DNA from: Naegleria gruberi
Lineage: Eukaryota
Direction: 5' to 3' (one strand)
Length of the DNA: 64,000 nt
NCBI GenBank assembly: GCA_000004985.1
Contig: GG738879.1
The translations under genes and the position numbers were made by a program. Shown here piece by piece: positions 1 to 64,000 of this stretch. Each line of letters opens with the position of its first letter. Position 1 is the stretch's first letter. The notes below the pieces were generated by a model. The model saw only the letters and a program-made list of their open reading frames with translations. It was not told the DNA's origin and ran no database searches.

Positions 1-215
1 TCTTTCGAATAATCAGCCATGGGTATTTGGAGAGCCATCTTTGGATCGAGTAGTTGGACTCTTTTGAGGTGTGCTGCTTCCAAATTGCTAGCATTGGCTT
101 TTAGTAATTGTTTGGAGGTTTTAGGGTCTTTCGGATCATTTTCGAAAAGATTATGAGATTCTCTTGAGGGAGGTCGATATATTCTTGCTGACATTACGCC
201 ATTTGTTCTAAGCAT
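1..215 (-). CDS. 5' part of a minus-strand gene running off the window start (MLRTNGVMSARIYRPPSRESHNLFENDPKDPKTSKQLLKANASNLEAAHLKRVQLLDPK...); function unknown
   Basis: The reverse complement of 1..215 is an open frame from an ATG at 213-215 with no stop before position 1. It is not in the ORF track because it is partial. No recognisable domain. Confidence 0.3.
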   Translation of the reverse strand, partial: MLRTNGVMSARIYRPPSRESHNLFENDPKDPKTSKQLLKANASNLEAAHLKRVQLLDPKMALQIPMADYSK

Positions 216-542
216 TTTATTTTAAAATTGTTGATTTCCTCAACTGAACACTGTAGAGTTGTAATGACAGTTTGATGGAGATGGTGTTATTATCTCATCT
301 TAAAAGATGTATTGGAAATTTCACCTCTATAGTTCATGACAATCTCATGCTTTCTTTGGTTTGTTGTTCTTACTATTTTCAATGACATTCATGACATATT
401 GAAAGACTGAGGGAACGTTTATGTTGGATTTTATGTTCATTTCTTGTTACGATGCAAGGTCAATAAGAGTTATTTTGCTTTGTATTATTGGGAAATTGTA
501 TCTGAACTTGAAATAGTAAATTAAACAATTAAAAGTGATTTT

Positions 543-3788: not shown

Positions 3789-5751
3789 GTAGAGGAGTGA
3801 AGGTATTATTGTTCTTGATCAACTATTAGTAGTCGTGATGGAGCAGTCGTCGCTTCCGTATTACAAATTAATTCTGATGTGGTGCCACAAGAGGGTATAA
3901 GCTTTGATATATTTCAATTAAAATTGGGTATTTGATGCATTGACTGAGTGCACTCAATTTTTGTATCTCTTATGTCTGTTGCTACTCAAATGTGTTTGTG
4001 TGTTCTTTATATTAAATTATTTGGTGCGTAATGATCTCCAACACAACACAAGAATGTGATGATATTATTTGGTGATGATAATGGTTGCTGTGACTTGTTG
4101 TGACTGCAACTCCAAATGGGAGAGGATGATGATGGTGCAGGAGGAATGAGAATCTTTACACAAAACACTTCAACTTAATCGTCCAATACTGATGGAATAA
4201 GAACGAAGAACTTGAACACTAGATGATGATGGTGCAAGACGCAGATATCTATGCTTTTCTTTTTCAAAAAGAGAATCTGACAGGAAAAGTCAACAGGAGG
4301 TCAAGAAGCTTGTGTCTCACCACTCTATGAAGTTACACCTGACTTTCAATATCTTCTAACAACTACAACTGCAAAGGAGAAGTGAGGAGTTGATTGTCTT
4401 GAGATTTTGTTTTCTGTTCAGGAATATTGTGAATGGGGTGTTATTGATGTGATGCTGTTGATGAATTACGTGTTGAACCTTTGTTGTTGGTGGAAGATGT
4501 GTAACGAACTACAGCAGGTGATGATAAATGTAAGTTGGTAATTGCTTGAGGTATGCGTGCGCATGGATCATGTGTAAGGTCTAAGAGGCATCGGTACAAA
4601 CTACCAAGCAGTTGTCTCTTAATTTTGTCCTTCTTGATACCTTGTTTGGAAAGGGTATTAGGAAATGCAGGATAAGTCCCTCAATGGACCGTGTGTTGGT
4701 GGCTGTTAAAAGCTCACACATATTGTTTACATGTTCCTTAATGTTTGGCAGATTTTGTGAGAAATAATGTTTTTAGGCATGCATAATTCTCAGTACTATT
4801 TTAGAAATGGTGACCCCAAATCTTGTATAAAATCGATTCTCCTTGTTTGTACATGGAACCTTAGACGCTATTTTGGCTTTATTCCAGCTGTATATACGTT
4901 CCAATAAAGAATGGAAAAATTACACTTGACTCACTAAAAAGTATATTAGAATTCCATTTGTGGTTGTTATTATTGAATTTAAAGAACAGCATATATGATT
5001 GGGTTGATTTTCCAATTTAATCCTTAATTTTCTGAAGTTTGAACTGTCTGTTGCATGTCATATAAAGTAGTGTCATTGCTTCAGATCCAAATATTGAACT
5101 ATTATTGTGAAGAATTTCTCACTTTGTGGATGTTCTTTCCTCAATAGTCGTCTTTATCCGTCTTCTTTTGACCAGGTTTATCCTTAGAGTTCAGTTTTCA
5201 TACTTCTTAAATAACCTAATTCCTTAACTTTTTGGATTGATTAATTTGCTCCAATTTATTGATGGTTCCTTGTGGTTTTAATACGATCTTCTGTATGTGG
5301 AATTTATAAGCATTTGCTAATCTCAAGAAAGGAGTGATGGAGGTATGTAGTTTTATTGCTTTATTGTTGCAAATTAATATCTGATCACAAATTTCTTGAT
5401 GTTCCTTATTATTATTTGGAACATCTTTTCATCTAATAAATTTCTTCTTTCTCTACAATCTTTTCCGATGATTTGACGAGATTATTTCCAGTACTCTTTG
5501 TTCATTCCTATTATTTAATTTAGAGAGAAAATGTTCTTTTCACAACTGTTTTTTTTGTTCTGTAAAATCTTCATGGTATCATGATCGGATGAAATTCTCT
5601 TTTTAATAAATTGATCCTCTTTGAGTTAATAATTGGAAAGGCCATCAGAGAAAATAAGAAGTAATTTCTGCTAGTATTTCTACTCCATTTGAAATACTAC
5701 AGCTCAAAGAAGAGAAAAGGCGCGAATTAAAAAATAATATTAAATAAAAAA

Positions 5752-6668: not shown

Positions 6669-8264
6669 ATGTTGGCAACTACAACAACTATAGCAGATAT
6701 TCAACCAACTACAACAAGTAGAAAAAGAAGATTTTTCAAGAGAAATTCATCAATAACACCAAGTGTTTCTTCTTTGGGAGATACTGATTCAAATCGCAAT
6801 AGTGGGAGTATAGATCAACAAGAAACAATTCCACAAGTTGTTCAACAGCCAGAGTTGACTTCTTCAAAAAAGGCAAAGAAAAACAGAAGGTTTATTAAGA
6901 AGCAAAAAAAGAAATCCACCTCCACCACCACTCCAAAAACTCCAAAGAAATCAGAAACCACCAAAAAGAGAAAAAGAAACAATGAATCAAAATTAGATAA
7001 GGACAAGAATCCAAAAGAAGCAACTATCAAAGAAAACAATGGAAATAATGAAATGATTCTTTTAGCAAAGAAAGCCAAATTGATTCTCTCAAAAATCAAC
7101 AACACACCACTACTCATTCCAGAACAAAAACCCATCACTGAGAAATTCAAAGTAGAAGGTGAAATATCAATCAATGGTAGTTTTAATACCAATTCTCAAG
7201 TGAGAGATGATCTATTCATTGAAACTCTGTTGAAGAACAATCATCAAAAGATTCCAGAAGAAGGTGTGGTATGGCCACGAATTCGTAAAATAATTGCAAC
7301 ATGTTACAATGGACACATGCTAAATGGGAAGAAATTCTTCTCTGGAGAGGATGTTTGCGTTGCCTCATTACTCAACTGGTTGATTGAGCTGGTACCTGAG
7401 TTTTCCAGTTCCAATGTAGAAATATTCAAGATGGAGAGGCATTCATTGAGAAAGGCAGAAACGACAAGAGTATCTCTGGTTTTGAATATGTCCAATTTCT
7501 CTCTGTCATTTGACGGAATTTCGAAACATGATTTTGAAATTGCTGCCAAGCTGGTCGAATTATTGACCCAGTTGTTTTATTCGAATTTGAAACATTTAAT
7601 TGTAATTGGTATTGAAAAACGCCATTCTCTCTTTACCAAATTTATGGAAAAGGATACAAATATTCCATTATCTATCAAGGAGAGAATATGTAAGTTAATA
7701 TTAGAAAATAATAGTGGAATGATATCTCTTGAGTTGTATCCGAAACTTGCAAAGGAATTCAAGAATTATTCCAAATTACTTGCTTGTTTCTTTGCTATAA
7801 AACAAGATGAATTCAGACACTTTAGTTTGAATAAGGGAGATGTTTCAAAGTGGCCATGTTTCGCCAAGTATTCCCTTTTCAAACATGTTTTTTCATTGGC
7901 AATGAAAGAATCAGAAGTTTGTTCATTCCTCCAACTATATTTCCAGTTAAAGAAGGAATCAAATTTAGCCAAAATGGTTCAAAATCAACTCAAAATTTTG
8001 AGAAAAGGAAATTCTGATGGTGAATCCACTTTTGAATTGTGTATTATTTATTTGATTCTAAAAGCATCCAAGAAAATTAGAGAAAATTCCAAAGAAGAAA
8101 CTAATGAATTGAAATTATCCATTCAAGAATTTCAAGATTGTAAAGAGTTTTTAGTGAATGAATATGATAGCATCATTGAAAACTCACCAACTTATCAATA
8201 CAAGAAATGTGATGCGATTTTTGGCATTAAAATGATTAGAAAATTGAGAAAGTTTATCGAATAA
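6669..8264 (+). CDS. Hypothetical protein with a basic, NLS-like K/R-rich N-terminal region
   Basis: Long ORF; the track start 6657 is TTG, the first ATG is at 6669. KKAKKNRRFIKKQKKK and KKRKRNNESK basic clusters. No recognised domain. Confidence 0.5.
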   Translation: MLATTTTIADIQPTTTSRKRRFFKRNSSITPSVSSLGDTDSNRNSGSIDQQETIPQVVQQPELTSSKKAKKNRRFIKKQKKKSTSTTTPKTPKKSETTKKRKRNNESKLDKDKNPKEATIKENNGNNEMILLAKKAKLILSKINNTPLLIPEQKPITEKFKVEGEISINGSFNTNSQVRDDLFIETLLKNNHQKIPEEGVVWPRIRKIIATCYNGHMLNGKKFFSGEDVCVASLLNWLIELVPEFSSSNVEIFKMERHSLRKAETTRVSLVLNMSNFSLSFDGISKHDFEIAAKLVELLTQLFYSNLKHLIVIGIEKRHSLFTKFMEKDTNIPLSIKERICKLILENNSGMISLELYPKLAKEFKNYSKLLACFFAIKQDEFRHFSLNKGDVSKWPCFAKYSLFKHVFSLAMKESEVCSFLQLYFQLKKESNLAKMVQNQLKILRKGNSDGESTFELCIIYLILKASKKIRENSKEETNELKLSIQEFQDCKEFLVNEYDSIIENSPTYQYKKCDAIFGIKMIRKLRKFIE

Positions 8265-9111
8265 GCAAAAACCAATTTCTTGTAATATTTATTAAATAAA
8301 AGTATCTTTATTGTAAAATCTGGATAATTTCTTTCTTTCTCTACAATTGTATGTGTAAATGAATGAATACCAAGCTGTTTCCTGAGTCTTTGGAACTATA
8401 CTTCCCCTTTTCGAGATATCTTTGCAATTCCATTCCTTTTCAAATTCATGTCGTTGTTTGTGCTCCTGTGATGATGCTGAAGATGATGATGATGTCTTGC
8501 TTAATTGCAACAATGACTCAATGTTAGTAGTACTCTAAAATTGTTGTTGGGTCATTTTCTCAATGGGCACCTTTTACAATTTGCCCAAAATGAATGTTGT
8601 CTTGTCTTGGGGTGTGTCCTAATGATTTTTAATTTGGTTTTGCTGTATTGGAGTGTACTTGTTTGTAAAGAATATTTTCTTTATTAAGCGAATTTTTGTG
8701 AATCCCACAAATGACAGTAAAGAAGGTTCATATTAAGACCATATCACATCTGTCTGCAGCCAATTATTCAATATATTAAGACTCTCCTAATATTAAGGAG
8801 AGTCTGATATCGTTATCATAATTTTGAAAACTATCAATATCCAGTCAAGTGTTTTTCATTCCGATGATTAGAATATTCCACATAATATGGTGGAGAACAT
8901 GTTTGAAACACACTACTGTGTGCAAACCTTATATTACAGCAGGCAGGGAGAATTTATTGAGGAGGAGAAGGGAAAGGACAATTTCAAAGAAGCACACAAT
9001 TCAATGTGTGAACAAATAAGATCTTAACGGAAAAATTAAAGAGAGGACAAGATTGATACTATATTATTTTGATTCACTCAAATTGTGTCTATATTAAAAC
9101 ATTGTTCTTAT

Positions 9112-9693
9112 CTAAAAGTGTAATGCTCTGTAGCCATCTTGATGTTTCTCCTCAATGAGATTGAATATTGTGGAGAGAAGGAGAGGAAGGCAGCATCCAA
9201 AACAGTCAGCACAACACATGAGAGGACTCAACACAAATTGAGTAATGATGAATGAATGAAGACTTTCGAATAGTTCCCTATTTCTTATATTACATTCGCC
9301 AGAGTATGTTAATGAAGCAAGGGTTATCAGAACTATAATTAAAACTCCCCATAATAAGAAGGAACAACAACGAAATATTATTTGACAAGGTCTATTCTCA
9401 TGTTTCTTCTCCTCACTGGAATGTGTTCGAATAGAAAAGTAGAAACGATCCACGTATATTCCAATGAGTGCCATGAATAAATTCACTGCCAATAATAAAC
9501 CAATTGAAGAAAGTGATAAAACTAATTTTGAAATTGTATTTGCTTTGCATTGTAACGAGTCAACCATTGTAATGTCTGATGTTTTCAAATAAATATAAAC
9601 TCCCCAGAGCGAAATTCCCAAAACTAAAATCATTGAAATCATCAAATCAATACTCATTAATCCAATCCCTTTCCATCCTTTAAATATTTTCAT
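9112..9693 (-). CDS. Small four-TM cysteine-rich membrane protein (paralog A); juxtamembrane CCADCFGCC motif, conserved C-terminal DGYRALH tail
   Basis: 193-aa ORF with four hydrophobic helices. The CC..C..CC cluster in TM4 is a likely palmitoylation site. Its C-terminal half is paralogous to ORF 9709..9975. Confidence 0.55.
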   Translation of the reverse strand: MKIFKGWKGIGLMSIDLMISMILVLGISLWGVYIYLKTSDITMVDSLQCKANTISKLVLSLSSIGLLLAVNLFMALIGIYVDRFYFSIRTHSSEEKKHENRPCQIIFRCCSFLLWGVLIIVLITLASLTYSGECNIRNRELFESLHSFIITQFVLSPLMCCADCFGCCLPLLLSTIFNLIEEKHQDGYRALHF

Positions 9694-9708
9694 TTTTTAT
9701 TCTAAAGT

Positions 9709-10237
9709 TCAGTGATGAAGTGCCTTGTATCCTTCGTTAGATCTTTCTTGTTCCAAATTCTTAATAAACGAACCGAAACAACATGTTGTACAACAACCAC
9801 CACAAATCAAACAAACCAAAACAAGCATCATTACAAATTGAGTTATCAAAAATGGATGTAAATCATTGTAAAATTCCACAATAGTACTTTTACAGTCTGA
9901 TTGATAATTTAGAACTGAAATGGAAATTAAAACTGAAAAGGAAGCAAATCCAGCAATGAAATTCCAACACCTCACAAATAAACTTGTTACTTTGACATTG
10001 GAATCATCACCTGATAAGACAGTATTTATCTAAGAGTGTTCCAAATATTGAACAAATGCATAAAACTGCAGAAACATAGCATAATGTATTGTAGGTCAAT
10101 AAAAGTTGAGAAATTGTTCTGCCTTGACACTTGTCAGACAGATTAGTGGCATTCATTGAAAAATTTCCATGTATTACAAGTCCCCAAGTTCCCATTCCAA
10201 TAAGAATTAAAAAAGATATGATGGAATCCAAGCTCAA
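9709..10237 (-). CDS. Small four-TM cysteine-rich membrane protein (paralog B), two exons: complement(join(9709..9970,10011..10237))
   Basis: ORFs 10007..10237 and 9709..9975 correspond to the N- and C-terminal halves of paralog A. A 40-nt GTGATG...GAG intron at 9971..10010 joins them in frame (489 nt, 162 aa). GGCCTTCCF and EGYKALHH motifs mirror gene A. Confidence 0.5.
9971..10010 (-). other. Spliceosomal intron (40 nt) in four-TM paralog B
   Basis: GT...AG on the minus strand. Removing it restores the frame between the two ORFs and the similarity to paralog A. Confidence 0.45.
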
Positions 10238-10416
10238 TATGCTAATTTCAAGTTAGCTTTCGTTGTATTTCTAGTTAAAAAACTAAACCTACCTAATTCC
10301 AAGTAATTTCAATTTTTGCATTTTTTCTTCTACTATTTTGTATTCTTATGAAAGGTATTGATGTTTTATTTTGTAAGTTTTCAATCGGTTTTAGTGTTGA
10401 TTTACTATCAACCAAG

Positions 10417-12939: not shown

Positions 12940-13548
12940 ATATGAAACGATCAGTGATTTTGCTTTTGAATAAATAGCTAATATTACAAGTATAATACAT
13001 GGAATAAAGAATGCAAAAATAAGTGGAATAATTGGTGGAAGACTGGCAAACTCAACTTTGACATAACCTTGAAAAATCAGAGAATAAAACTCTATTAAAA
13101 AACTCCAAGTTAAGAATCCTTTCAGAATATCATGTCAATATTGAATCAAATATTGAACTAAAACATACCAAAATAAATATCAGAGCTAAAGCCAAACCAA
13201 TATAAACAATTCATCAATATCCGATATTTTGTTTGCTCGCTTTCTTTCCTATTTGTGTAATAGGAAAAGTAATTATCATAAAATTCATCTTGATGATTAT
13301 CACGTGTCTTGTTATTATTATTTAAATTGTCAAGAGATGCCGATGACAAATTGTGCCTAGAGGGTGATTTAGTTTTCAACATTTTAACACTATTTAAATA
13401 ATAATAACATTTCAAATACAAGTTCGATGAACTGAAAAAAGCAGTTGATGTTTTGTTTCTATCCGATCTAACAATAAAAACAACACTGAACACTTATTGC
13501 AAAGCAAATTAGGTATTTTTTTTACTTTGTGGAACGTATCTAAAGATT

Positions 13549-18827: not shown

Positions 18828-18836
18828 TATATATAG
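18828..18836 (+). promoter_or_regulatory. TATA-like element (TATATATAG) about 120 nt upstream of the 18952 ATG
   Basis: Sequence match only. Confidence 0.25.
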
Positions 18837-18951
18837 ATATTAAATCTGCCACCTGCCTGTAAAATATATTGTATTCTAATACTAACAGTTTCTAATAACT
18901 AGTCCTCTCTAATTTCAAGCTTACAAGTGTCAACAATCAAAAATACTCAAA

Positions 18952-30742: not shown

Positions 30743-30824
30743 ATTGAATAAAACAATCACTCAATTTTAGATATTTCCTTAATATTATTGAATGAAAACA
30801 AAAAAAGGAAAGATTAAAAAGGTG

Positions 30825-44621: not shown

Positions 44622-44916
44622 TTTTTATGATTGATTAAACTAAAATATTTTATTGTATGAATTAAAAATAGCACATTTTTGCGGTCAAGTAAAAAAGACT
44701 TGGTACAGCTGGATACAAATGTTTGATACTATGTGCTAATTCTGAAATAAAATTAGCATGTGTTGTTTTTTTGTTTTAATGTTAATTGGTTCATCATCAC
44801 TAGCAGGATGAGTAAGCTGTAGATTTACAATGCATCTTTTCCGGAAGGTGAAAATGTATTTAATGAAAATGGATGTTCTCAAGACGTTTCTGTACCAACC
44901 TCATCAACAATAAAAA

Positions 44917-46481: not shown

Positions 46482-46530
46482 AATTGCTCAACTGAAAGCC
46501 AAGTCTGGCTTTAATAAAAATCTTTAAAAA

Positions 46531-47255
46531 ATGAACGAAAGTGATAAAACTTTTGCTGATGGCTTGATAAGAGTTTTGGAGGTTTGTGATCATTTGTACT
46601 TGTTAACATGACAATTCCGAAATAAAGCCTCTAACAACAGAATATGATTCAAAAGTGAAGGATATTCAAATCAGTCAAACTAAATTAGCTGAAGAAATAG
46701 ATAGACTTGCAAAGAAATTAGATTCATGTAAAGAGGAAGCACAATTCGTTAACGTTGCTCCATACCTTCAAAAATTAGCAAATTCAAGAAAACGTGTAAT
46801 TAATATATCAACAACTCTAGGACACATATCCGATAGATTATCAAGATTGAACAAATTAGCAAAACAAAAGTATGTGTTAATAATTCCTTACCTTTTAATC
46901 AAACAATCATAACAGATATCCAGAACTCGAACAACTTCGCCAACAACGTGAACGATTAAAACAACAGGGATCATCGGGTAAACTTGTTGTCCAGCAACAA
47001 TCTTCATCGTCTTCTGAAGTAGTGCCTGCAACAAGTACCACTACTCCATCTTCTACCACCGAGCAACAATCATCATCCACAACAACACCAACCGAACAAA
47101 CACCACCAGAACAATCCAGCACAACTCTGTCAAATGAAGATGAAACAACCAAATCAACTCCATCAACTTCCGAAGAAGCACAAGATACTAATACCAACAT
47201 TACAACTTCCTCTGCAACAACAGAAAACCCTGTTGAAGCTGTTGATCAGCAATAA
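46531..47255 (+). CDS. Small coiled-coil protein with an S/T-rich tail (possibly a BLOC-1-subunit-like protein), three exons: join(46531..46581,46628..46869,46916..47255)
   Basis: ATG exon MNESDKTFADGLIRVLE, a 46-nt GTTTGT...ATAAAG intron, exon 2 (track ORF 46655), a 46-nt GTATGT...TAACAG intron, exon 3 (track ORF 47022). 633 nt, 210 aa. Functional call is weak. Confidence 0.5.
46582..46627 (+). other. Spliceosomal intron (46 nt)
   Basis: GAG|GTTTGT...GTTAACATGA...ATAAAG|CCT; frame-preserving. Confidence 0.45.
46870..46915 (+). other. Spliceosomal intron (46 nt)
   Basis: AA|GTATGT...CTTTTAATC...TAACAG|A; joins ORF 46655 to the frame of ORF 47022. Confidence 0.5.
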
Positions 47256-47299
47256 ATGGACTTTGCCGCCAAAAACATTTACGTTTTTATCATCAAAAA

Positions 47300-49616: not shown

Positions 49617-49631
49617 ATTATGAGGTAATTG

Positions 49632-50678
49632 TTATATATTTTGTCCTGAAAAAGGTGAAATGAATTGGCCTTGAATAATCAAAGAATCCTCAGTACTAAA
49701 CAAATATCCATTCGTATGTTTTGTTGGTGGAGCGAGTGATGTCGTAATTGAAAATGAAACAATATATTCACTCAGTGAAAGTGTTTTCTCATCTTTTGTT
49801 AGCGAAACTCCCACTAAATCAATAAGAGGATGCAAGGCAATTGTGAATAAATCAATATTACAATAGCCAAGCAGTTCATCCTCTTTTTTATCTTTCGTTT
49901 TCTCGAATACTCTAATACTAACATAATCCTTAGTCAGATCCGAAATCATTGACTTGCTCGGAATAATTAAATTTGTGAAATGTTCATCAGCACTACTTGC
50001 TTCCTCCATCTCTAGTAAGTCCGAGATTGAAACGCTGGATCTCATTAGTTTTTTAGAAGTTACTTTGTCATAAACAAACTCCACATCACAGTCTTTCCAC
50101 TCAAGAAATTCATTCTTGGTTAATAGAGGGAGCTTGTAGCAAAAATTGGAAAATTCATCACCTTGGTTAAGTTGGGCAATTATATAAAGTTCAGAGGATG
50201 GACTTGCTGTTTGAGCTTCCTCTTTGATATTCAGTAATTTCAAATCTCCAACTGATATATATTTAAATGGCTTGATTGGCTTCGTACTAGTGTGTTGACT
50301 TTCATGACTATCTGCAATATAAGATGAATAGTATCTTGGTGTTTTTTGATTTTGAGGAAGTAATTGAGAGTCAATAATATTATTTAATTCCTCTTCATCT
50401 TCATCAGATTCTGTATCCTTTGGAGGTTCAATTATTTCTTCAGTCCCCTTCTTTTTCCTTCTAAAACTAAGAAAACTCCTTCTTTTCTTTTTTTCAACCG
50501 TTGATGTGCTATCAAGACTTTTTCTTGTAGGTTCAATGGTATCATGAGCTGATGGGACGTCCAAGCTTTGTCTTTCCTCGAATCGGACCGAATTATTATT
50601 GTTGTTATTATTTCCTTCATTCGGAATGTCCTTGTTTTTTTTAGACTTTTTCTTTAAACCTAATATTCCTCGAATCAT
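49632..50678 (-). CDS. Hypothetical protein with a poly-N/basic N-terminus and a C-terminal beta-rich (possibly C2-like) domain
   Basis: 348-aa ORF; no confident domain. Confidence 0.45.
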   Translation of the reverse strand: MIRGILGLKKKSKKNKDIPNEGNNNNNNNSVRFEERQSLDVPSAHDTIEPTRKSLDSTSTVEKKKRRSFLSFRRKKKGTEEIIEPPKDTESDEDEEELNNIIDSQLLPQNQKTPRYYSSYIADSHESQHTSTKPIKPFKYISVGDLKLLNIKEEAQTASPSSELYIIAQLNQGDEFSNFCYKLPLLTKNEFLEWKDCDVEFVYDKVTSKKLMRSSVSISDLLEMEEASSADEHFTNLIIPSKSMISDLTKDYVSIRVFEKTKDKKEDELLGYCNIDLFTIALHPLIDLVGVSLTKDEKTLSLSEYIVSFSITTSLAPPTKHTNGYLFSTEDSLIIQGQFISPFSGQNI

Positions 50679-51109: not shown

Positions 51110-53133
51110 ATGAGTCAAGTTTGTTATAAGAATCGTAAAGGAGATGCGGAGGATGAATTTTCGAGGTTTTCTTCCTTCACTCTTGACCATACAACACTTC
51201 GGAAGTTGTTAGTAAATTATGGTGAATATCCTTCAAAATATAGAATGCTAATTTGGAGGTTTTTATTGAATATTCCTGAAAACAAAGAGTCCTTTGAAGT
51301 ACTCTACTCTAAGGGAATTCATTTTACTCAGTACAGCCTTCACAAACGATATCCAATAAGTAATTCATCAATATTTAGGAAAATACAGAGAATCATTTCA
51401 GCTATGGCAAATCTATCACCAATTTTTGGTGCCGTGGAATATTTGCCTGAATTAATATTTCCGTTCTTAAAAGTGTTCAATCAAAGTAGCTCAACTATCT
51501 TCGAAATAGTATTAACATTCTTTGGTATGTAACAATACTTTAAAATTACGTATTAATTGATTGAATAGTTAATTGGGGAAAGGAATGGTTTGAATTCTTC
51601 CCTAATCCACCAGCAACTGTTCTTAACTATGTTGCTTCCTTGCTTCAAATTTATGACAATGACGTACTGGAGCATTTGTCATCTCTTGGGGTGTCTTCTG
51701 CTTCTTTTGCTTGGCCAATGTTAAAAAGCTTATTTACTGAGCTCTTTACAACTGATCAATGGCTAAGAGTATTTGATCATATATTTTCTAATCCTCCCTC
51801 TTTTATATTTATGTTTATTGTATCATATCTGAATTATTTTAGGAGAAGTCTTTTCCAAATTAAAGAAAGAAGAGAAGCAGAAAACTTCTTCCACAGTATT
51901 CACGCTTGTGATCTTGAAAAGATTCTAGCTTTTGCTTATGACATTCAAAAAACTCAATATGAAAGTTCTGTACAAAAGTTGATTGCCAAATCATATGGTT
52001 CATTTAGTTTCTTGCCGAAAGGTCATTATAATATTTCTATTCGCTTTCCTGAATACTCTGTAGATTATCAATTAAAGCAAAGAGAAAGAATTGTAAAAAG
52101 TGAAGAGGATTTTGATAGAGCCAGAAACAATTATATTCAATTGAAAAAGCATAATGAGGAGTTTGAAATAGAGCATAGGAACTGGTTAATAAGACAAAAA
52201 GCATTAATTGAAGTAAGCAAAACGCAAGAAGAAGCTTCAAAGAAAATGGAAAGAGAAATATTGGAGGAAAAAGAGAGAGTTAGACAAATGGAATTGGAGG
52301 AGCGCTTAAAAAATGTAGAATACTTGCAAGAAAGAAGAAAGATGTTAGCCAATTTACATGAGGCTGAATTGAATGCGAAGACATTAAATCAACAAAGATA
52401 CATGGAAAATCTAACAATTGACACACATAATGAGATCAAACACAAAATGACGGAAATGCAATTAGGGGAAATCGAAAAAATGGAGCAAGCTAAATTGCAA
52501 GATATTGAGTGTTTCGTAAATCCTCCATCCAATTACTATTTTACAAAGAACCCATCTGCAACTTCACCAAGAAAACCAGAAACTGTAAATATCAAACCAC
52601 TTGCAAAAGAGGTTATTATCCCTGTATTTATCCCACCTGAACAGGCAAAACAGCCAGTTTCAGAAGCGATAACAAAGGACACGACAGAGATTAACTCTCC
52701 TGAAATGTCAGAGCCGAATTCTAAAGAATCAAGTTTTGCAGATTGTCTTCAAGTGCATCTACTAGGAAATGAAATTAATTCCTTAGAAAAAGAAATAGAA
52801 TCAACAGGAAAGAATCTGACTCCAAAAGATATCAAACTTCAGGCCATCATACAACCTGAAATCCCTCAAAAGAAAAAAGTGAAAAAAAAGAAAAAATTGG
52901 TAGAAAAGTCTAATGAACAAACATTAAAACAGAAGAAGAAAGAAGCATCTCCAAAAAAGGCTGTTACACTTCCTTCGCTCAAACAGATGAACTCACGAAT
53001 GAGAAAACAAAACAAAAAGTATTACCAGAAAAGCAAAGGCAAGCAAAATCTCCAAAAAGAAAGAGCCCAAAGAAGAAGGAAATCAAAGAAAGCAATCTTA
53101 AGGAGAAACCACAAGAAATGGTCACCCCGTTAG
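51110..53133 (+). CDS. TBC (Rab-GAP-like) domain protein with a long C-terminal coiled coil and K-rich tail, two exons: join(51110..51524,51569..53133). It may be catalytically inactive: no IxxDxxR arginine finger was seen.
   Basis: YRMLIWRFLLNIP and ...NWGKEWFEFFPNPP...LLQIYDNDVLEHLSSLGVSSASFAWPMLKSLFTELF are TBC-domain helices. A 44-nt GTATGT...ATTAAT...GAATAG intron joins the two track ORFs. The 3' end is uncertain; see the frameshift finding. Confidence 0.6.
51525..51568 (+). other. Spliceosomal intron (44 nt) in the TBC gene
   Basis: G|GTATGT...GTATTAATTG...AATAG|TT; phase 1 on both sides. Confidence 0.6.
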
Positions 53134-53262
53134 GTCATACTTCCCAAATTTCAACAAGTTCAAACTCATCCCAACCGGATGAGGATCGATTCAGATTATT
53201 ACAAGAACAAATATCAAAACAAAAATCAGAGCTCAAAAAATCAGATAGGACTATGAAACATA

Positions 53263-54132
53263 TTGAATCGATTGCATCAAACATTTCCAAACCATCAAGT
53301 AAATCCTTCAAACATTTCAAGGAGTATTTCATCATCCCCATCTATTGAGAGCTTAAAGAACACCAATGTTTTTAATAGGTTTGATTATTTAAAGAGCGTA
53401 GATTCTAGAGTTGATGATTTAATTCAAAAGAAGTTTAAGGAGTTTATTACAAGAAAGGTTGAACAACCAAGAGAAAAGAGTTTTAATGTTGAAGAGCAAA
53501 ACCTTTCGTTCCCTACAAGCATATCAAACACAAACAGCGCATCAATACTTAACTCCTCTGCATCAACACAGTCACCAAATCCAACACGAAATAGCACTCT
53601 CAGAGGAACAATATCTGCCACTCTTAACCCAAGTTTTTCTCAAACTTCTTACTTGGCTCCTTCTTCATGTATTGATAAATCCAGTGACAATGAGAGCTCT
53701 TCAGATGTGAACTCTTTATTAAGACATAGTAGCGAATTTGAGACAACATCCTCTAAAAGAATGAACCTTTCTTCTGATTCACATTTATACTCAGCATCCC
53801 CAAGATCCTATTCTGGAAGTTCAGGTTACAAATCGAAGACTACAACAGGTACATCCGGATCTCATGTAATTAATGCATATGTTTCCATTTCTGAAGCTCC
53901 TTATCATACCAAGACATCAGATGAAATAGTTAATGAGATTTCAGATACAAGAAGTATTGATGAATTACTTGAGAGTTTCAACACGTCCTATCCTTCAATT
54001 TCAAGCAGTATAGAATCAATTAAGATCAAGCCACAAGACTATTCCTCCCTTGATCTAAGTTTTTTTAGTGACGAAGATGAAGTTACGACAAGTGTAAATA
54101 CTTCAGCATTAATGACAGAAAAAGAATTTTAA
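53263..54132 (+). CDS. Ser-rich low-complexity ORF with no in-frame ATG start; probably a frame-shifted continuation of the upstream reading frames (53118..53348 and the TBC gene)
   Basis: Three overlapping forward ORFs (TBC frame to 53133, frame A 52917..53348, frame B 53257..54132) all read as plausible protein. No 38-51 nt GT..AG element explains the shifts. Confidence 0.3.
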   Translation: MNRLHQTFPNHQVNPSNISRSISSSPSIESLKNTNVFNRFDYLKSVDSRVDDLIQKKFKEFITRKVEQPREKSFNVEEQNLSFPTSISNTNSASILNSSASTQSPNPTRNSTLRGTISATLNPSFSQTSYLAPSSCIDKSSDNESSSDVNSLLRHSSEFETTSSKRMNLSSDSHLYSASPRSYSGSSGYKSKTTTGTSGSHVINAYVSISEAPYHTKTSDEIVNEISDTRSIDELLESFNTSYPSISSSIESIKIKPQDYSSLDLSFFSDEDEVTTSVNTSALMTEKEF

Positions 54133-57100
54133 TTCTTAATAAATTTCTCAGCTTCAAGTTCAGCATCAACATTGTGAGTTTCAATAATAGGTATTGGTTG
54201 TTGGTTTTGCTTCATGTTATCGTCTCCTATTGGAATAACAATATCATACTTATCAATATCTCGTTTCATACTCTTAGACATTTCTTCTAAAGAGATGTCC
54301 GTTTCGTTTGGAATAGGATGTTGGTAATGTTTCTCTTTGAGAATGTAGGTAGTAATTTGTCCTTTACCTTTGATTTCAACACCTTTTCTCTCATCGAATT
54401 CAAAGATATCATAGACTCTTTCGTAGGTTTGTCTGGTTACTTGGATTTTACCTGGAATACCAGTTGATTCCATTTTAGATGCAAGAGTAACATTTTCACC
54501 CCACAAATCATAAGCAAATTTCAATGTACCAATACAACCAGCAATTACACTTCCTGTGTGTAACCCAATTCTAATATTTAAAGTTGTTTTCTTTTCTAGA
54601 TTATACGCATAAATAACAGAATACATCTCCATAGCAAATCTTAATACTTTTTCTGGATGGTCTGATTGTTGAAGATGTAAACCTCCAACACAAAAGTAAG
54701 CATCACCACTAAATTGTAATTCAGATTATTATCTAATTTTCAAGCAACTTACATTGTTTTAATTTTTTCGAGTCCAAATTTGCTAATACCTCTATCGAAT
54801 CCGTTAATAATAGCATTCAACATTTGAATCAAATCAATAGCTGACATGCCTGATGACATTTTGGTAAAGTTAACCATATCACTAAATAAGCAAGTGGTAT
54901 CATCAATTTTTTCTGAAATGTAGGTTTCACCAGCTTTTAACTATTATTTTACAGTAAATGTTCAATAACAAAACTTACTCTTGCAGCTACTTGCTCAGGA
55001 AGAATATTCAAAAGTAAAGAATCACTCTTCTTCTTTTCTTCTTCAATTAACATATTATGTTTCTTCTCTGAAGTGATATCTTTGATAAACAAACTGATTA
55101 GGTTACTCTTTTCAAATGATGAGACACTCATGGATACTTGAGCAGGGAATGTTGTTCCATTCTTTCTTTTAGCTTCCACCTCAAAAGACTCTCCATAACT
55201 TCTTATGGCATTACCCATCGATGTTACTGTATCTCTTATCTTATTAGAGCTTGCATCTGTAAATAAAAGAGATGGTGGCTTTCCTAATATTTCATCAGCC
55301 TTATAACCCAACATATTCAAAGCACTTGGATTGATAATATCAACAAACCCTGTTTTGCTATTCAACACAACAGCTCCATCAACAGCAGCATCTACAAAAA
55401 GTTTAGAACATGAGCAGGCTTGAAAACTTACCCAAAATAGCTTTTGTCTTTGAAAATTTCTCTCCTTTTGCAGCCTTCTTACCATCAGAAAATGTAAAGT
55501 ATAAAATATAGTTCCTAATCTCCTCGAATTGCTCCAAAACATCATATTGAATGAAATTAAACATCCTTCTTAATTGGTGGTTTTCATTATCGAATCTTTT
55601 GACTTGTAAATACTTTGTGTAAGTCAATATAAGTAATATTGCAACAGAAACGCTTGTTATTGCTGGACTGATAATTCTAGTAGGTGATTTGTAAGTGTCT
55701 ACATATCCAGTAAGTACAGAATACATTTTGGAAGTGAATTCACTGGAAATGGCAAAAATTCCAATAAATCTTTCTACCAAAACACTATTAATATATGTAT
55801 GTCTGTATGCATCCTCATTGAATCTATCTGCTGATAAAGTATATGCATCCATGAGTTGATCCAATCCATAACAAGTGTAGTTTTCTGCAGTGCAGTTTTG
55901 GCTCAAAATCTTGATATCTAAAGAAGAAACTCCTGTTATGCCAGAAAATCCATTCTCAATTGTACCGTAACGATAATCTAACCAGGCTTCCATCATCTGT
56001 TGTGAATGTTGAATTATTTCATCGTGGAATGATTTCATGCTAGTTTGTAATATTGAAGAGTCACCTAATAAAAGTTCTCCAAGTTTAAATTTAGCTCTTT
56101 GTGAAATTTGTAATACCTTTGTACCATGCTCTACCTTTAACATAGTGTTGAATGAAGTCTGCATCATGTCCAAGCACTCATAAAGGAGTAAAGCACTTGC
56201 AATAGCAGTGAAGAGGAAAATAGCAATAATGAGTGCTGAAATTATTCTCTTAGGAGTGAAAATAGATTTTTGGATTTTCACAATCTTATCCTCGGATTTT
56301 TGTTCCAAATGGTGAAATACTGTACCCACAATATCCTTAGGAAGCTTTGCAAAAAGCTTTGTTAATTTTTCCATATGAAGTAAGTGAATATAAGAGAAAA
56401 TTGTGTAGACAATAATGAATAGCACGTATACCACAAACACACCAACAAGGGTAAAAATGAAAACATTCTTTTCCTGATTAAGAAAAGTGTCACTTCTTGC
56501 GATCAAAGTGCCACAAAAACTTTCCAGACCACCAGTAATGGCTATTCTGTTTAGCCATATATACAAGAACTCATAATTTTCATAAATATTCATGTAATCA
56601 TCAAGTTTCCAAGCATATAGCTTTGTAGCAATAGTGTGGAGCTCATTTGTAATATCAGATAAGGAAGTATTTTTAGGGGTTGATATAAGACTGGATACAG
56701 ATCCTGTTTGTAGTACTGGAACAAGAACTATTTTGTCTGCATAAACAAACTGCTTCATACTCTCTACCTCAAATCTTTGTTCGTTCATAATATCTTTAAC
56801 CTTTTGTGTAATTGTCACTATGCTCTTAACTCTTGCCTTGTGGTTTGCCCATTCTGATTTAAATCTATTGGTAGTGTTGGTTGGAGATAATATCTGAATG
56901 TACCTAATACCTGAAAGAATTAAGTAGGGAACAGGAGACACTTGGCAAAATTGATTTACAGTAGTAATACGGTCGCTATCATCTGCAAGTCCCAGATTCA
57001 ACCCTAAAACAATTGCAATAATAGCAATTGATATAAATCCCAATGATTGAAGGAAAATAAATTTCTTTTTGCTTTCGTTTGGCTTGTTGATGGCTGACCT

Positions 57101-59120
57101 GTATATAGTTTGTTTGTCTTTTTTGTAATCTCCATATTGACTAGCTGATTCCAAATTTTCCATATCGTTCTCATCTTGTTTTGGTTCTAAGTAATTTGGA
57201 CCATCATCTACATAATTGACAGGTAACACCTTGTTGCCTGGTAAATTACGTTTCTTAAATTCTGACTTTGAGTCAGAGGAAAATCTTCGTTTCTTTGATT
57301 GTTCATCCTCCAAAATGTTTGCTTCAGCATAAAATTCATCTGCCAATTCAGCTTCAAAAAGGAATTCTTCTAAAAACTTTGCATAGCTTCTCAATACTTG
57401 GGCGTTATTATGGAAATTAACAAGTAAGTTATTGAACGTTGTACTTGAATTTTCCATGTATGTGTGCATCATTTTAACCAAACTATATACCTTTTCCGAG
57501 TTTTCCTCATTAGACACAAAGTGTTTCCAGAATAGCTTTTGATATTGTCTTAATCTTTCCTGTTGTTTCTCCACAGTGTCAAGAATGTGTCTAAGTTCTA
57601 AAGAATTTTTTCCTGTTGAAATTGAAGCCTCTATTTCCTTAGTTCTTTGGTAAACAAGGTAACGTAATACAAGATTAGAGTTCTTTTTACCTGCCTTTGC
57701 AAGTAGGTGAAGGCAAAAGCTTGGTGAATATTGATCTCCCATCATTTTCTTAAATATATATAAAGATGAAATTATCAGAGTGTAGGTATCTAATTCTAAT
57801 CTTTGATTTGTAGCAACCTTTATCAAGTTGGTTATTAACTCATCTTCTTTAGTTTTGATAGAGAATTTCAAATATAAGTTTAAAAATTTTGGATTGACTA
57901 ATTCATTAACACTAGTTTGAACGGTGATATTCTCGTTCTTGAAATCAGTTAATCTTCTTCTGACATATCTCATAACTATCTGTGTATAAATTTCAACAAT
58001 AGAAAATCCAATAAAGAAAAATATAATCACAGAGCCAAATCCAACACCAAAAAGATAACCCAAACCAACATCTTCACTTACAGGATCATTCGCTACAATG
58101 GCCAGTATGCTGGATATTGCAGCACCTGCTTTAGATAAGTACAACCCACCAAAAATCGAATTCACAATTCTATAGTGAAATGGTAAATCATAAATTAGAA
58201 AACCAAATATAAGGAGTGTGAAAAATAAAAAGAGTAAAGGTCTTGCAATAAATGCTTGGGGTGGTAATATTTGAGAAATGATTAAGTGGATTTGGTTGAT
58301 TACTACAGCAGAAGCAAATACAACAGGGCTGTCCATACTTAGCCAAGACTTACCCTCAACCCATGTGTCACACGATAGAAGTATTCCAAGAAATGTGAGA
58401 GGTAATTGTAATATCATAAATAAAAGTGATATGGCTGCAAAGGAACCATTTAAAGGACTCCAACAACCTATGGTAGGAAACCTTCTTAGAGCATATTGAG
58501 CAACTCCATCCACTACTAGACCTTGTTTAGAATAATCACAAGCCCAAAAAGCGGTCAAGCAAAATACAAATCCAAGTCCGAACACTCCAAAGAACATGCA
58601 TATAGCTCTAATTGTATTCTTGATTTTTGATGAATGCTTACTTCCTCTATGAAGAGCTTTATAAGCATAGTAGATTGCAACCAGAGCTATCAACTCTAAC
58701 ACAGCAAGTATTACAGCAACGGCAAGAAAGAGCTCATAAGGATACCAACTGGCACCTAATGTTCTTGGAACTGCAATAATCCTAACACCTAATTTTGCAG
58801 ACTCACCCCAATTAAATTCTAAGATGGTTAATAAATACATTATTTCAGGAATACTTACCAGACTCCCAACCTAGAGCTATTGATTGCTCGACCAATACTA
58901 TATTCAATAATATGAAAAGCCAATTTGGTAATGCTTTTGGCAATTTTATAGAAACTAGAAAGAAGAATAATGTATCTTCTAATTTTCCAACAATACTACT
59001 ACCCCGAGTGAGGGTTGTATTACTAGTTTTTGATCTACTAGAAGAGCCTTTTGAAAAAACCGACTCTCCATCATGTCCTACGGGTGAATGATCACTAGAG
59101 TCTCGCATCGAGTAGGCCAT
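54129..59120 (-). CDS. Membrane-bound PAS-domain adenylyl cyclase (class III nucleotidyl cyclase), five exons: complement(join(54129..54708,54753..54940,54979..55391,55432..58818,58859..59120)), about 1609 aa
   Basis: Exon 1 is a Ser-rich cytoplasmic N-terminus. Exon 2 is a region of about 1100 aa with two TM clusters and two large inter-TM domains. Exon 3 is a PAS domain (AILGDAAVDGAVVLNSKTGFVDIINPSALNMLGYKADEILGK). Exons 3 to 5 form the cyclase domain: LLNILPEQVAARLKAGETYISEKIDDTTCLFSDMVNFT...GLEKIKTIGDAYFCVGGLH...IRIGLHTGSVIAGCIG...YDLWGENVTLASKMESTG. Substrate-specifying residues are Lys (before TIGD) and Asp (YDLWG), which indicates adenylyl cyclase. Introns of 40, 40, 38 and 44 nt. Total 4830 nt. 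Confidence 0.75.
54709..54752 (-). other. Spliceosomal intron (44 nt) in the cyclase catalytic domain
   Basis: Minus strand: ...AAAACAAT|GTAAGT...AATTAGATAATAAT...TTTAG|TGGTGATGC. Splicing yields KIKT-I-GDAYF. Confidence 0.75.
54941..54978 (-). other. Spliceosomal intron (38 nt) between the PAS and cyclase exons
   Basis: Minus strand: GCAAGA|GTAAGT...AATAATAG|TTAAAAGCT. Splicing yields QVAAR-LKAGETYIS. Confidence 0.7.
55392..55431 (-). other. Spliceosomal intron (40 nt) before the PAS exon
   Basis: Minus strand: ATTTTGG|GTAAGT...TTTTGTAG|ATGCTGCTG. Splicing yields KAILG-DAAVDG. Confidence 0.7.
58819..58858 (-). other. Spliceosomal intron (40 nt) after exon 1 of the cyclase gene
   Basis: Minus strand: GAGTCTG|GTAAGT...ATTTATTAACC...CTTAG|AATTTAATTGG. 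Joins ORF 58845..59120 to ORF 55403..58840 (…GWES-EFNWGESAK…). Confidence 0.7.
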
Positions 59121-61528: not shown

Positions 61529-61555
61529 ATATTCGTGTAAAAAAACAATAAATAT

Positions 61556-64000
61556 TTATTCAATTAAATCAAATACACTTTGAACAACCTCTGCATGTCT
61601 TTCAGAGAATGTGTTGATTAAGAACATGATAAGCTTCTTTTGCAAGTCTGGAGTTAATTTCGATTTTCTATCCTTATTATTATTAATAATTTTGTATAAA
61701 ATAGAGTCACGAATCATATTTTCCTCATTTCCAGAATTAGCCTCCTTGATGAGATGGAGGAGTTGAACTGAAACATAGAATGATGATGTGTAAATATTGA
61801 GAAGAATATCTAGTTTGGTTTGTTCCTCGACTTCTGTTTCCTTTTCATAGAAATCACAATAAATATCTGTTGCAATCAAAAGTCTATCCAATAACTTTTG
61901 TTGATTTTCCATAATTACCCTATTATCTGATGGAATACCTTTGTAGATAGAAATTAATAAATCAACAGCACCCTTATAGCTCTCATTTGCCCAATTTTGG
62001 TTTGGTTCCTCAATAGCAAGATCAGTTGCAAGTTGGGCTTGATAGTATGTTAGTTTGAGGAAATAAGAGGCAGAATTTGCTGTGTTAAAATTATTGTTAG
62101 CAACGGATGCAAGTTTCAACAGAGATAATCTGTTTCTGGTGGTTCCAAGCTCTCCTAATGGAAGGATGTTTTGTGAGTAGTCATCTGACAAATCAGCCAA
62201 AGAGGATTCAACTTCACCCAAGTTTCCAACTTGGATATAGTGCAACCATTTGAGGTTGGAGTTTGGTTCAATAACTGAGGCCATTTGTTCTCCACATCTG
62301 AAACTCCAATTGTTTGCCAATAACTCGTGATACTTTTTAGAATCTCTAAGATATGTTAATAGATATGTTGCAAAGTCTTTGTATCTCTTTACATAATGAG
62401 AATATTTAACAGTTCTTTCCTTTTCAGTTGGATAGTTCTCCTCTGCTATTTGTATCAAGTGTTTGAAATCTCTATATTTTTCTGCTAAGGTTAAGGCAAA
62501 AGTCTTTGGTGAAATTTCTCCAACATCCTTCATCTTTCTGAATGTACCAATTATTAAATCTCTTTTAGCCTCAAAATTGAATGTCTGGAAATGAGAAACC
62601 TCTTTTTCTTTCATGGTTTGAAGAATTGAAAATGTAAAATCTGCTATTTCATACATTTGGTTGAGTATTTGAGGGACTGATTTACTTTCTGAAGCGCTAA
62701 GATTACTGGCTGATCTTTCAAATTGTTCAAAAAATCTTGTAATAAGGAGACCTGGCTTATCAATTGTCCACGTACTTCCACATTCTTTAATATTGGTACC
62801 AAATCTATTCAATACCTTCCTAAATTCAAGTATCCCTTCTGAAAAGCATAAAAAGACTTGATTTACAAGAGATAATGTGTTATAAGTGGTTTGACTAGAA
62901 ATAATCTTTTCAGATTGAATTTGATAAATCAAACTTTCAACTCTTGAAACAAGAATGTAGAAATTTTCAACATTACATTGCGATTTGGTAAAATTAGCCT
63001 CTTCACAGCATAAGTTCATAGCTTGAATAATCAAATCTTGAGATGATTTTGATCCAAGTTGATTTTGTAACTCTCTTAACTTGATGCAAACAAAGAGCTT
63101 TTCACCATTTTGTAAAATTATTCTTAAATCCTCTTCTGAAAGGTTTTCAATAATTTGGTAGTCAACTAGGTATTGTAAGAAGTCCATATATTCATCCATC
63201 TTTTTTTGCAATGATCTTAAAATCAAAATAGATAGTTTGTCGTAATAAATCATTTCAGCATCAATAATCAAACTACCGGATGTTGGAATGCTATCTACCA
63301 ACATTTGACTAGCTCTAACAATAGATGGTCCAAAAACAGAGGAGCGAATGAAATTTAAAGAGCTGATTTTCTCACGTTTTCTAAAATTGCTTAAAACCTT
63401 ATTAGCAAGAGTAGTTTCTGCTTCTTTTGGATCAGAATCCGATTCTTGATCCATGGATTGATCTACACAGTTTGATGCCAGACTCATACTATCTTCCAAT
63501 TTAACAATCCTCAGTGCCTTGAAATTTCCTGATTTATCAATTAAGCAACCATCCAAACCATCAATCATAATATCTCCTAGAGAAATAATACCATTGTAAT
63601 CACATTGTGTAATAATTTTGTTGTCTTCAATTACAGTAATACTATTCAAAGTATGTACATAAAGTCTATTGCAACTCTTCATAATTTGACATTTGGAATA
63701 GAATTTAGAGTTGATTTCACTAAAATCACACTTATCTAAGCGGATAGGTGATTCTACAACAATATTGTCGTTAATTTGGATTGGCCATAAAAGATATTCG
63801 ATAGTTGAACTACTTCTGGCAGTATCAAGTGGTTCTGGAACCATACATGTTAAAAGATAAATCTGTTCAGTTTGTTCATCAAAATTAAAATCTAACAGTC
63901 TCAATGAATAGTTTCTTATCATGTTCAAGCTTTGTAACTCATGAGAAATGTCCTTTCTCCAACAAAGATCCTTTCCTTGCTCTGTATATTTCGAGATACA
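61556..64000 (-). CDS. Nucleoporin Nup133-like protein (C-terminal alpha-solenoid plus part of the N-terminal region). It is truncated: the reading frame continues beyond the window end at 64000.
   Basis: ...TFALTLAEKYRDFKHLIQIAEEN...YVKRYKDFATYLLTYL...LKWLHYIQVGNLGEVESSL resembles the NUP133 C-terminal region (FALELAEKYCDFDILVQMCEQ...) as I recall it. The track ORF 61556..63928 starts at a TTG, with no in-frame stop between it and the window edge. Confidence 0.5.
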   Translation of the reverse strand, partial: CISKYTEQGKDLCWRKDISHELQSLNMIRNYSLRLLDFNFDEQTEQIYLLTCMVPEPLDTARSSSTIEYLLWPIQINDNIVVESPIRLDKCDFSEINSKFYSKCQIMKSCNRLYVHTLNSITVIEDNKIITQCDYNGIISLGDIMIDGLDGCLIDKSGNFKALRIVKLEDSMSLASNCVDQSMDQESDSDPKEAETTLANKVLSNFRKREKISSLNFIRSSVFGPSIVRASQMLVDSIPTSGSLIIDAEMIYYDKLSILILRSLQKKMDEYMDFLQYLVDYQIIENLSEEDLRIILQNGEKLFVCIKLRELQNQLGSKSSQDLIIQAMNLCCEEANFTKSQCNVENFYILVSRVESLIYQIQSEKIISSQTTYNTLSLVNQVFLCFSEGILEFRKVLNRFGTNIKECGSTWTIDKPGLLITRFFEQFERSASNLSASESKSVPQILNQMYEIADFTFSILQTMKEKEVSHFQTFNFEAKRDLIIGTFRKMKDVGEISPKTFALTLAEKYRDFKHLIQIAEENYPTEKERTVKYSHYVKRYKDFATYLLTYLRDSKKYHELLANNWSFRCGEQMASVIEPNSNLKWLHYIQVGNLGEVESSLADLSDDYSQNILPLGELGTTRNRLSLLKLASVANNNFNTANSASYFLKLTYYQAQLATDLAIEEPNQNWANESYKGAVDLLISIYKGIPSDNRVIMENQQKLLDRLLIATDIYCDFYEKETEVEEQTKLDILLNIYTSSFYVSVQLLHLIKEANSGNEENMIRDSILYKIINNNKDRKSKLTPDLQKKLIMFLINTFSERHAEVVQSVFDLIE

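Follow-up and report, generated by a model that had tools for sequence, protein, structure and literature searches.

Minimal-intron classes are known from fission yeast, Pneumocystis, Paramecium (~25 nt) and Blastocystis (~30 nt), and the minimal introns of compact genomes share a narrow length distribution near the lower limit, a strong 5' splice site, an AT-rich body and scant polypyrimidine tract. The same properties were found in a 64,000-nt stretch of Naegleria gruberi DNA (contig GG738879.1, assembly GCA_000004985.1; hereafter the window), in which the short segments interrupting protein-coding genes are very probably ordinary spliceosomal introns (U2-type, GT-AG) that form a near-minimal size class of 38-51 nt, judging from their own signals and from comparison with N. 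lovaniensis. Introns of this length are near the smallest that spliceosomes generally handle. The class differs from those listed above in belonging to an unrelated lineage (Heterolobosea, Discoba) and in being centred on 44 nt, not 25-30 nt, while recognition across the intron is presumably common to N. gruberi and the other minimal-intron classes. The genome of N. gruberi NEG-M was reportedly published and annotated in 2010. The phenomenon is already known in kind, as N. gruberi introns have been annotated since then and at least two of those described here, both in a gene encoding a phosphoserine phosphatase-aminotransferase fusion (PSP-PSAT), are implied at the same locus by the JGI/RefSeq model XP_002675213.1, itself a prediction, to which our three-exon spliced model was identical (exact sequence look-up). 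The consistent shortening relative to N. lovaniensis may be a mildly new point, put forward as a hypothesis from one 64-kb window.

GT...AG segments of 25-300 nt linking two open frames were searched between neighbouring same-strand open reading frames (ORFs), and consensus-like candidates were present at every spot where such ORFs formed one gene, with no junction requiring an intron longer than 51 nt. Overall, 20 well-supported introns and one doubtful intron were mapped in 10 genes (Table 1). The 20 supported introns had a mean length of 44.4 nt (sd = 3.7, median = 44), the shortest being cyclase intron 3 and the longest class including HORMA intron 1. A preliminary description of the window had listed 14 introns of 38-51 nt; this range was recovered exactly, and the list is consistent with the first 14 introns found here, but the count was too low, as at least 20 are present, including five in the BLTP1/Csf1 gene, a second one in HORMA and at least one in a tandem membrane-protein gene (TMa). 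Those beyond the first 14 were three introns at the 5' end of BLTP1, the TMa intron, in which a CTAAC lies 11 nt from the 3' end and which links a short ATG exon to the conserved body of the gene, and two in-frame, stop-free introns that the earlier list had probably missed, the only HORMA intron that it mentioned being the one after the ATG.

Removal of these segments restored both reading frames and conserved domains. The spliced PSP-PSAT, HORMA, SUN, Snapin, ASH, cyclase, BLTP1 and PGAP2IP models were all divisible by three with a single terminal stop. The Pfam match to Guanylate_cyc extended from profile positions 57-182 (133.8 bits) in the unspliced sequence to 3-182 of 183 (192.1 bits) in the spliced product, the junction of cyclase intron 4 falling inside the cyclase catalytic motif (KIKT/IGDAYF, with the slash marking the junction), and a PAS match ran across the junction of cyclase intron 2. 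The Sad1_UNC match grew from positions 6-95 (78.7 bits) to 6-131 of 132 (126.7 bits), the spliced SUN product regaining its C-terminal YTCIYRFRIHG, while RabGAP-TBC went from 138-215 to 52-215 in one stretch, and Snapin_Pallidin from 11-88 (72.8 bits) to 2-88 (83.3 bits). For BLTP1, addition of exons 1-3 (introns A-C) extended the BLTP1_N match from 83-263 (41.9 bits) to 25-263 (91.3 bits), with a continuous BLTP1_N/Csf1_N match over the junctions of introns A-C, and Csf1_N (profile 3-431) matched unbroken through that of intron D. In PSP-PSAT, junction 1 aligned without gaps to the fusion orthologs of Naegleria, Willaertia and Acrasis, and junction 2 (FLQGG/AYTQF) lies in columns that are invariant from bacteria to plants. 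The ASH junction was spanned by a sub-threshold Ig-domain match.

In HORMA, conserved coding sequence (SAVAQQSKTQS...) lies 5' of the first in-ORF methionine, so that an upstream ATG exon is required, in agreement with the earlier placement of an intron directly after the ATG. An alternative 30-nt HORMA intron 1 with a GTGAGT donor at 20704 was rejected, being under the observed minimum and having its branch-like CACTAATC 3 nt from the donor, which is sterically implausible. The preliminary description had also stated that every gene model was divisible by three and recovered a conserved domain. The lengths and the completed domains bore this out, the TBC model also being divisible by three, but that model ends at 53133, before the homologous 3' part of the gene.

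Intron positions were then compared with three overlapping syntenic loci of N. lovaniensis (GCA_003324165.2, contig PYSW02000040.1), where the gene order is the same and the introns are likewise short, with the same donor types (GTAAGT, GTATGT, GTAGGT and GTTTGT). The cyclase ortholog (P0130) was reconstructed exactly with eight introns of 44-63 nt; the HORMA, membrane-protein, PGAP2IP, RRM, ASH and TBC structures were solved from gene ranges and product lengths, and the PSP-PSAT and Snapin intron boundaries were read straight from the sequence. Fourteen of the 20 N. gruberi introns had a counterpart at the same position, with matching phase wherever it was determinable. All four cyclase introns shared position and phase with N. 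lovaniensis introns of 63, 49, 52 and 51 nt; their flanks were nearly the same at intron 1 (ALGWES/EFNWGE in N. gruberi, SLGWES/EFAWGE in N. lovaniensis) and identical in both species at introns 2 (KTKAIL/DAAVDG) and 3 (EQVAAR/LKAGET). The PSP-PSAT counterparts measured 55 nt (intron 1) and 49 nt (intron 2), that of HORMA intron 2 measured 48 nt at the same spot, and HORMA intron 1 corresponded to a displaced 71-nt intron two codons further in. Snapin intron 1 matched in position a 115-nt intron that shares its GTTTGT donor, and Snapin intron 2, whose downstream exon start in N. gruberi (YPELEQLRQQRERLKQQ) was 85% identical between the species, likewise matched an 85-nt intron. A 50-nt intron occupied the position of the ASH intron, the 94-codon N. 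gruberi exon after it having 46% identity, and a 61-nt intron that of TBC. In PGAP2IP, a 126-nt intron followed the same ...ATTTATTTTG/GTATGT context between exons with 92% and 61% identity, and the single N. lovaniensis ortholog of TMa had a 94-nt phase-2 intron a few codons past the start.

The SUN intron was found only in N. gruberi, and N. lovaniensis reads straight through the junction, as precise excision predicts. Conversely, N. lovaniensis has at least seven introns that N. gruberi lacks: four interrupt the cyclase gene, and the ASH, RRM and membrane-protein genes contribute one apiece (this count leaves aside another intron, the second in PGAP2IP). N. gruberi reads through the cyclase and ASH sites. 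Considering orthologous and neighbouring introns together, N. lovaniensis lengths ranged from 44 to 126 nt (median = 52, n = 22), a wider spread than the 38-51 nt of the window, which makes the earlier view of intron size as a lineage signature an overstatement at the genus level. Within the 14 orthologous pairs, the N. gruberi intron was always the shorter (median = 44 compared to 58 nt; p ~ 0.0005; Wilcoxon test). Together with the single domains rejoined by splicing, the 14 counterparts speak against the adjacent ORFs being independent genes, which the preliminary description had named as one of two findings that would overturn its interpretation.

A GT 5' end and an AG 3' end were present in 20/20 supported introns, and also in the doubtful 21st, whose extended sites are poor. 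The donors comprised GTAAGT (10), GTATGT (4), GTAGGT (2), GTTTGT (2), GTGAGT (1) and GTAAGC (1), with G at +5 in 20/20 and T at +6 in 19/20, and the acceptors TAG (14), AAG (3) and CAG (3; Snapin intron 2, ASH and HORMA intron 2). The donor rule GT(A/T/G)(A/T)GT proposed earlier does not accommodate three introns, the two with GTAGGT and that of SUN (GTAAGC), itself part of the support then cited, and the (T/A)AG acceptor rule fails for the three ending in CAG. Introns were poorer in GC than exons (0.24 compared to 0.34; A+T of 76% and 66%, respectively) and had no real polypyrimidine tract. When the A of a branch-like YTAAY motif was sought 8-25 nt from the intron 3' end, the motif was present in 11/20 introns (5.0±1.9 in shuffled introns; p ~ 0.0025), at 9-21 nt from the end, and the relaxed YTRAY in 12/20 (p = 0.0075); the earlier statement that most introns carry such a motif was generous, YTAAY being enriched yet in a bare majority only. 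No intron was U12-like when U12-type signals (/RTATCCTT donor, TCCTTAAC branch site) were looked for, as none of the 20 donors resembled RTATCC.

In exons (53 kb), the sense strand carried 3 copies of GTAAGT and the antisense strand 12, for ~18.6 expected from base composition, and 10 further copies were intron donors; the depletion in the exon sense strand looks like the outcome of selection against cryptic donors. When gene spans were scanned for the bare pattern (a low-GC segment opened by a consensus-like donor and closed by an acceptor at 38-51 nt), the sense strand gave 35 matches, 19 of them exact introns; the antisense strand gave 20, and shuffled sequence 25.8±5.3. With ~20-26 chance matches per strand, the pattern alone was rejected as evidence for an intron, and the 20 introns stand above chance because of frame restoration, domain completion, position in the second species and exonic GTAAGT depletion.

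On this anatomy, and from what is generally known of short introns, each intron would be recognised as one unit (intron definition). The features available for recognition would be a strong 5' splice site with GTAAGT or a similar hexamer, an AT-rich body lacking a real polypyrimidine tract, a YTAAY element 9-21 nt from the end in about half of the introns, and a 3' splice site that in most cases reads TAG. Excision would fuse the exons in frame and yield full-length proteins.

Several observations weigh against this interpretation or limit it. Removal from mRNA, branch-point use and the mode of recognition are all inferred from sequence. Eight of the 20 introns have no YTRAY at the expected place and offer degenerate candidates only. 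Twelve other model variants (of SUN, Snapin, YbeY, HORMA, ASH, PGAP2IP, TBC, TMa and the cyclase) were identical to no deposited protein, which suggests that the public annotation departs from ours at starts or introns; some of the mismatches may come down to start codons. BLTP1 intron E is probable, its evidence consisting of sequence signals and a 14-bit Pfam gain. The mean intron length published for N. gruberi is 203 nt (PMC8296547), about 4.5 times the mean in the window.

Frame breaks without a suitable intron also belong among these points. Compared to the continuous 1144-aa N. lovaniensis ortholog, the TBC gene must change frame twice in its 3' half (0 to 2 to 0), both times within 52800-53350 (+), one change lying near 53295-53305 and the other in the lysine-rich, A-run-rich 52800-53100. 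No consensus intron candidate accounts for either of them, and the best one (53324-53378, GTATTT) would remove sequence conserved with N. lovaniensis. Not every frame break in the window is therefore an intron, and an assembly error, an allelic indel or a real truncation are all possible at this site. A second case lies at 9112-10321 (-), where small membrane-protein genes form a tandem paralogous pair; N. lovaniensis has a single such gene, which points the other way with respect to PGAP2IP. The upstream member of the pair, TMa, contains two in-frame TGA codons bridged only by the non-consensus GTGATG...GAG segment listed as doubtful in Table 1, in a region that is continuous in N. lovaniensis and in the downstream paralog, and this copy may be a decaying duplicate.

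Further candidates were rejected as introns. Positions 17397-17447 of PSAT encode the conserved VCDMSSNFLSRP, 44183-44234 of the proteasome gene lie in the conserved core, and 50035-50079 (gene model G22) align throughout with a single-exon N. lovaniensis ortholog. Candidates at 7690 (G3), 19438 (G8) and 59984 (G26a) were too short or frame-breaking.

Concerning the size class, the range of 38-51 nt could be an effect of sampling or ascertainment, with N. gruberi introns being generally longer and more variable, which we regard as rather unlikely. Besides the published N. gruberi mean, larger values have been given for N. fowleri (mean of 126-144 nt; PMC8296547) and N. lovaniensis (genome-wide median of 80 nt; PMC6125883), and a literature search for a stated median or mode of N. 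gruberi intron length (e.g. 40-50 nt) returned none. The sample of 20 introns comes from 10 genes in one 64-kb region, stretches without gene models (3818-5731, 8261-9115 and 17978-18913) could conceal exons split by long introns, and the scan for in-frame, stop-free introns spanned 33-63 nt only. However, a segment of 38-51 nt sufficed at every junction when ORFs were joined over 25-300 nt, all conserved domains and N. lovaniensis-homologous blocks were explained without long introns, and a few long or mis-predicted introns are enough to push means up. Moreover, in these syntenic genes the N. lovaniensis median of 52 nt is below its genome-wide 80 nt, which suggests that the published figures overstate the mode. 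Extended to the whole genome, the proposal would be that N. gruberi introns are nearly all compressed to the ~38-51 nt class, systematically below their N. lovaniensis orthologs despite a larger genome, and that the mean of 203 nt comes from a few long or mis-predicted introns; this we advance tentatively and with some doubt.

Seven of the 20 introns were divisible by three, about one-third as expected, and two of these seven had no in-frame stop. Paramecium introns have been described as avoiding this in-frame, stop-free configuration, and no such deficit was apparent here, in a small sample. The two, HORMA intron 2 and BLTP1 intron E, are invisible to ORF reading because they are in frame and stop-free. 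Some segments, and these two especially, might accordingly be coding insertions or optionally retained sequences instead of constitutive introns: the frame stays open in both, retention would add merely 15 or 14 residues, alternative splicing in non-animal eukaryotes, N. gruberi among them, most often takes the form of intron retention (PMC6142364), and a homology search with the BLTP1 N-terminus returned no sequence against which intron E could be compared. This was judged improbable, as both segments open with GTAAGT, a hexamer otherwise nearly absent from exons, that of BLTP1 intron E being one of five remaining in the provisional exons, and as Pfam scores rose when either was removed. HORMA intron 2 would encode ~15 near-unconserved residues, the sole unconserved stretch inside a 79%-identical alignment and edged by the GTAAGT and CAG sites, and the only solution fitting the annotated N. 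lovaniensis gene drops the equivalent 48 nt; without it, the HORMA Pfam score was ~6 bits higher in a test sequence that approximated the spliced junction. Removal of BLTP1 intron E raised Csf1_N from 28.7 to 43.3 bits and BLTP1_N from 25.2 to 39.2 bits, and the segment is AT-rich (Table 1), ends in TATAG and has a CTAAT 18 nt upstream.

That the interrupted ORFs are unspliced altogether, as separate genes, decaying pseudogene fragments or assembly-broken frames, is highly improbable: the TBC frame changes without intron signal, the TGA codons of TMa with their poor candidate, and the reading of splicing here from the DNA alone would be in keeping with it, but all 20 segments are GT...AG with consensus-like donors and lengths within a 14-nt range, the cyclase, SUN, TBC, PSAT and BLTP1_N domains are broken exactly at the segments and continuous on their removal, 14 segments are matched in position by N. 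lovaniensis introns that differ from them in length and sequence, one (SUN) is cleanly absent there, and random frameshifts or errors would produce none of these patterns.

Read as spliceosomal introns, the segments affect annotation at this locus. The preliminary description had noted that the ORF track under-calls multi-exon genes, which was confirmed by the adjacent ORFs joined through short GT...AG segments: a stop-to-stop track splits about one-third of the genes here and turns the in-frame introns of HORMA and BLTP1 into false coding sequence. Several deposited models at the locus appear to differ from those supported by domains and orthologs, and a splice-aware gene finder would need a minimum intron length below 38 nt. 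If the shortening holds genome-wide, it would be modest but clean evidence on how intron size evolves in a free-living excavate, and, if the compression is true, it would offer a clean within-genus system for studying the rate and direction of intron length change, as well as gain and loss, near the lower limit of the spliceosome.

Table 1. Position, size and splice sites of the introns mapped in the 64,000-nt window of N. gruberi contig GG738879.1.
Intron	Coordinates	Strand	Length (nt)	Donor	Acceptor	Phase	Remarks
PSP-PSAT intron 1	16352-16393	+	42	GTAAGT	TAG	1	
PSP-PSAT intron 2	17064-17104	+	41	GTAAGT	AAG	2	Within aminotransferase domain
HORMA intron 1	20683-20733	+	51	GTAAGT	TAG		Immediately 3' of ATG 20680-20682
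HORMA intron 2	21056-21100	+	45	GTAAGT	CAG	1	In frame, stop-free
BLTP1/Csf1 intron A	31144-31190	+	47	GTAGGT	TAG		
BLTP1/Csf1 intron B	31289-31328	+	40	GTATGT	TAG		
BLTP1/Csf1 intron C	31361-31408	+	48	GTTTGT	TAG		
BLTP1/Csf1 intron D	31999-32040	+	42	GTGAGT	TAG		Links 197-codon and 3169-codon ORFs
BLTP1/Csf1 intron E (probable)	32886-32927	+	42	GTAAGT	TAG		In frame, stop-free, 83% AT
SUN-domain gene intron	46304-46350	+	47	GTAAGC	TAG	1	
Snapin intron 1	46582-46627	+	46	GTTTGT	AAG		
Snapin intron 2	46870-46915	+	46	GTATGT	CAG		
ASH/HYDIN-like Ig gene intron	49288-49330	+	43	GTAAGT	CAG		
TBC (RabGAP) gene intron	51525-51568	+	44	GTATGT	TAG		
PAS-guanylate cyclase intron 1	58819-58858	-	40	GTAAGT	TAG	1	
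PAS-guanylate cyclase intron 2	55392-55431	-	40	GTAAGT	TAG	1	PAS-domain start
PAS-guanylate cyclase intron 3	54941-54978	-	38	GTAAGT	TAG	0	Shortest
PAS-guanylate cyclase intron 4	54709-54752	-	44	GTAAGT	TAG	2	Within catalytic domain
PGAP2IP/CWH43-like intron	13119-13168	-	50	GTATGT	AAG	1	Links 111-codon and 905-codon ORFs
TMa intron (upstream copy of tandem membrane-protein pair)	10242-10292	-	51	GTAGGT	TAG	2	
TMa second intron (doubtful)	9971-10010	-	40	GTGATG	GAG		Both ends non-consensus

The window has a GC content of 0.31-0.35 (~0.33), for a published N. gruberi genome value of 33% with 1.7 exons per gene (PMC8296547), and is densely packed with eukaryotic genes. In addition to PSP-PSAT, these encode a cytochrome b5, a PGAP2IP/CWH43-like protein, a multi-RRM protein, a HORMA protein, a 4E-BP, a DPP4-like peptidase, YbeY, an old-yellow-enzyme reductase, a 3400-residue BLTP1/Csf1 protein, a kinase, a proteasome alpha subunit, SUN and Snapin proteins, an ASH/HYDIN-type Ig protein, a TBC RabGAP, a large TmcB-TPR/PAS/guanylate-cyclase protein and a PB1/NBR1-like protein. 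By exact sequence look-up, the proteasome alpha subunit and the reductase were identical to RefSeq XP_002675300.1 and XP_002675220.1, respectively, both from N. gruberi NEG-M. By this sequence identity the window, which lies on a scaffold of 384,281 bp, is nuclear DNA of N. gruberi NEG-M, an amoeboflagellate of the Heterolobosea (Discoba), which sets aside the lineages suggested earlier (dictyostelids, other Amoebozoa, Schizosaccharomyces- or Pneumocystis-like fungi).

The PSP-PSAT gene (16018-17978, +) encodes a 625-aa fusion of PSP, a HAD enzyme with a DFDSTL motif, and PSAT, enzymes that catalyse the final two reactions of serine synthesis. This fusion also occurs in N. lovaniensis (73% identity), Willaertia magna (58%) and Acrasis kona (47%), and looks like a heterolobosean gene fusion.

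In N. gruberi, the SUN stop codon (46479-46481) precedes the Snapin ATG (46531), while the N. lovaniensis annotation fuses SUN and Snapin into one 775-aa model with both Pfam domains (compare window positions 44917-47255); this merger probably reflects an error of annotation. In N. gruberi, the gene for the DPP4-like serine peptidase (23525-26155, +) is located between the 4E-BP gene and an LRR gene; the N. lovaniensis locus, collinear in other respects, lacks it at this point. Synteny with N. lovaniensis stops left of ~9100. The stretch at 3818-5731 (~1.9 kb), unusually long for so gene-dense a region, contains no convincing ORF on either strand, no Rfam match and no homology to the N. lovaniensis loci. 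Rfam and tRNA scans of the window found nothing beyond a tRNA-His (GTG) at 30824-30895 (-), within the 320 nt that separate the reductase gene from the BLTP1 start codon. Lastly, a 1.7-kb contig from a metagenome-labelled sample (ENA assembly ERZ929261, run ERR1078381) had 99.3% DNA identity to 43114-44729, indicating that N. gruberi or a very close strain was present in the ERR1078381 sample.

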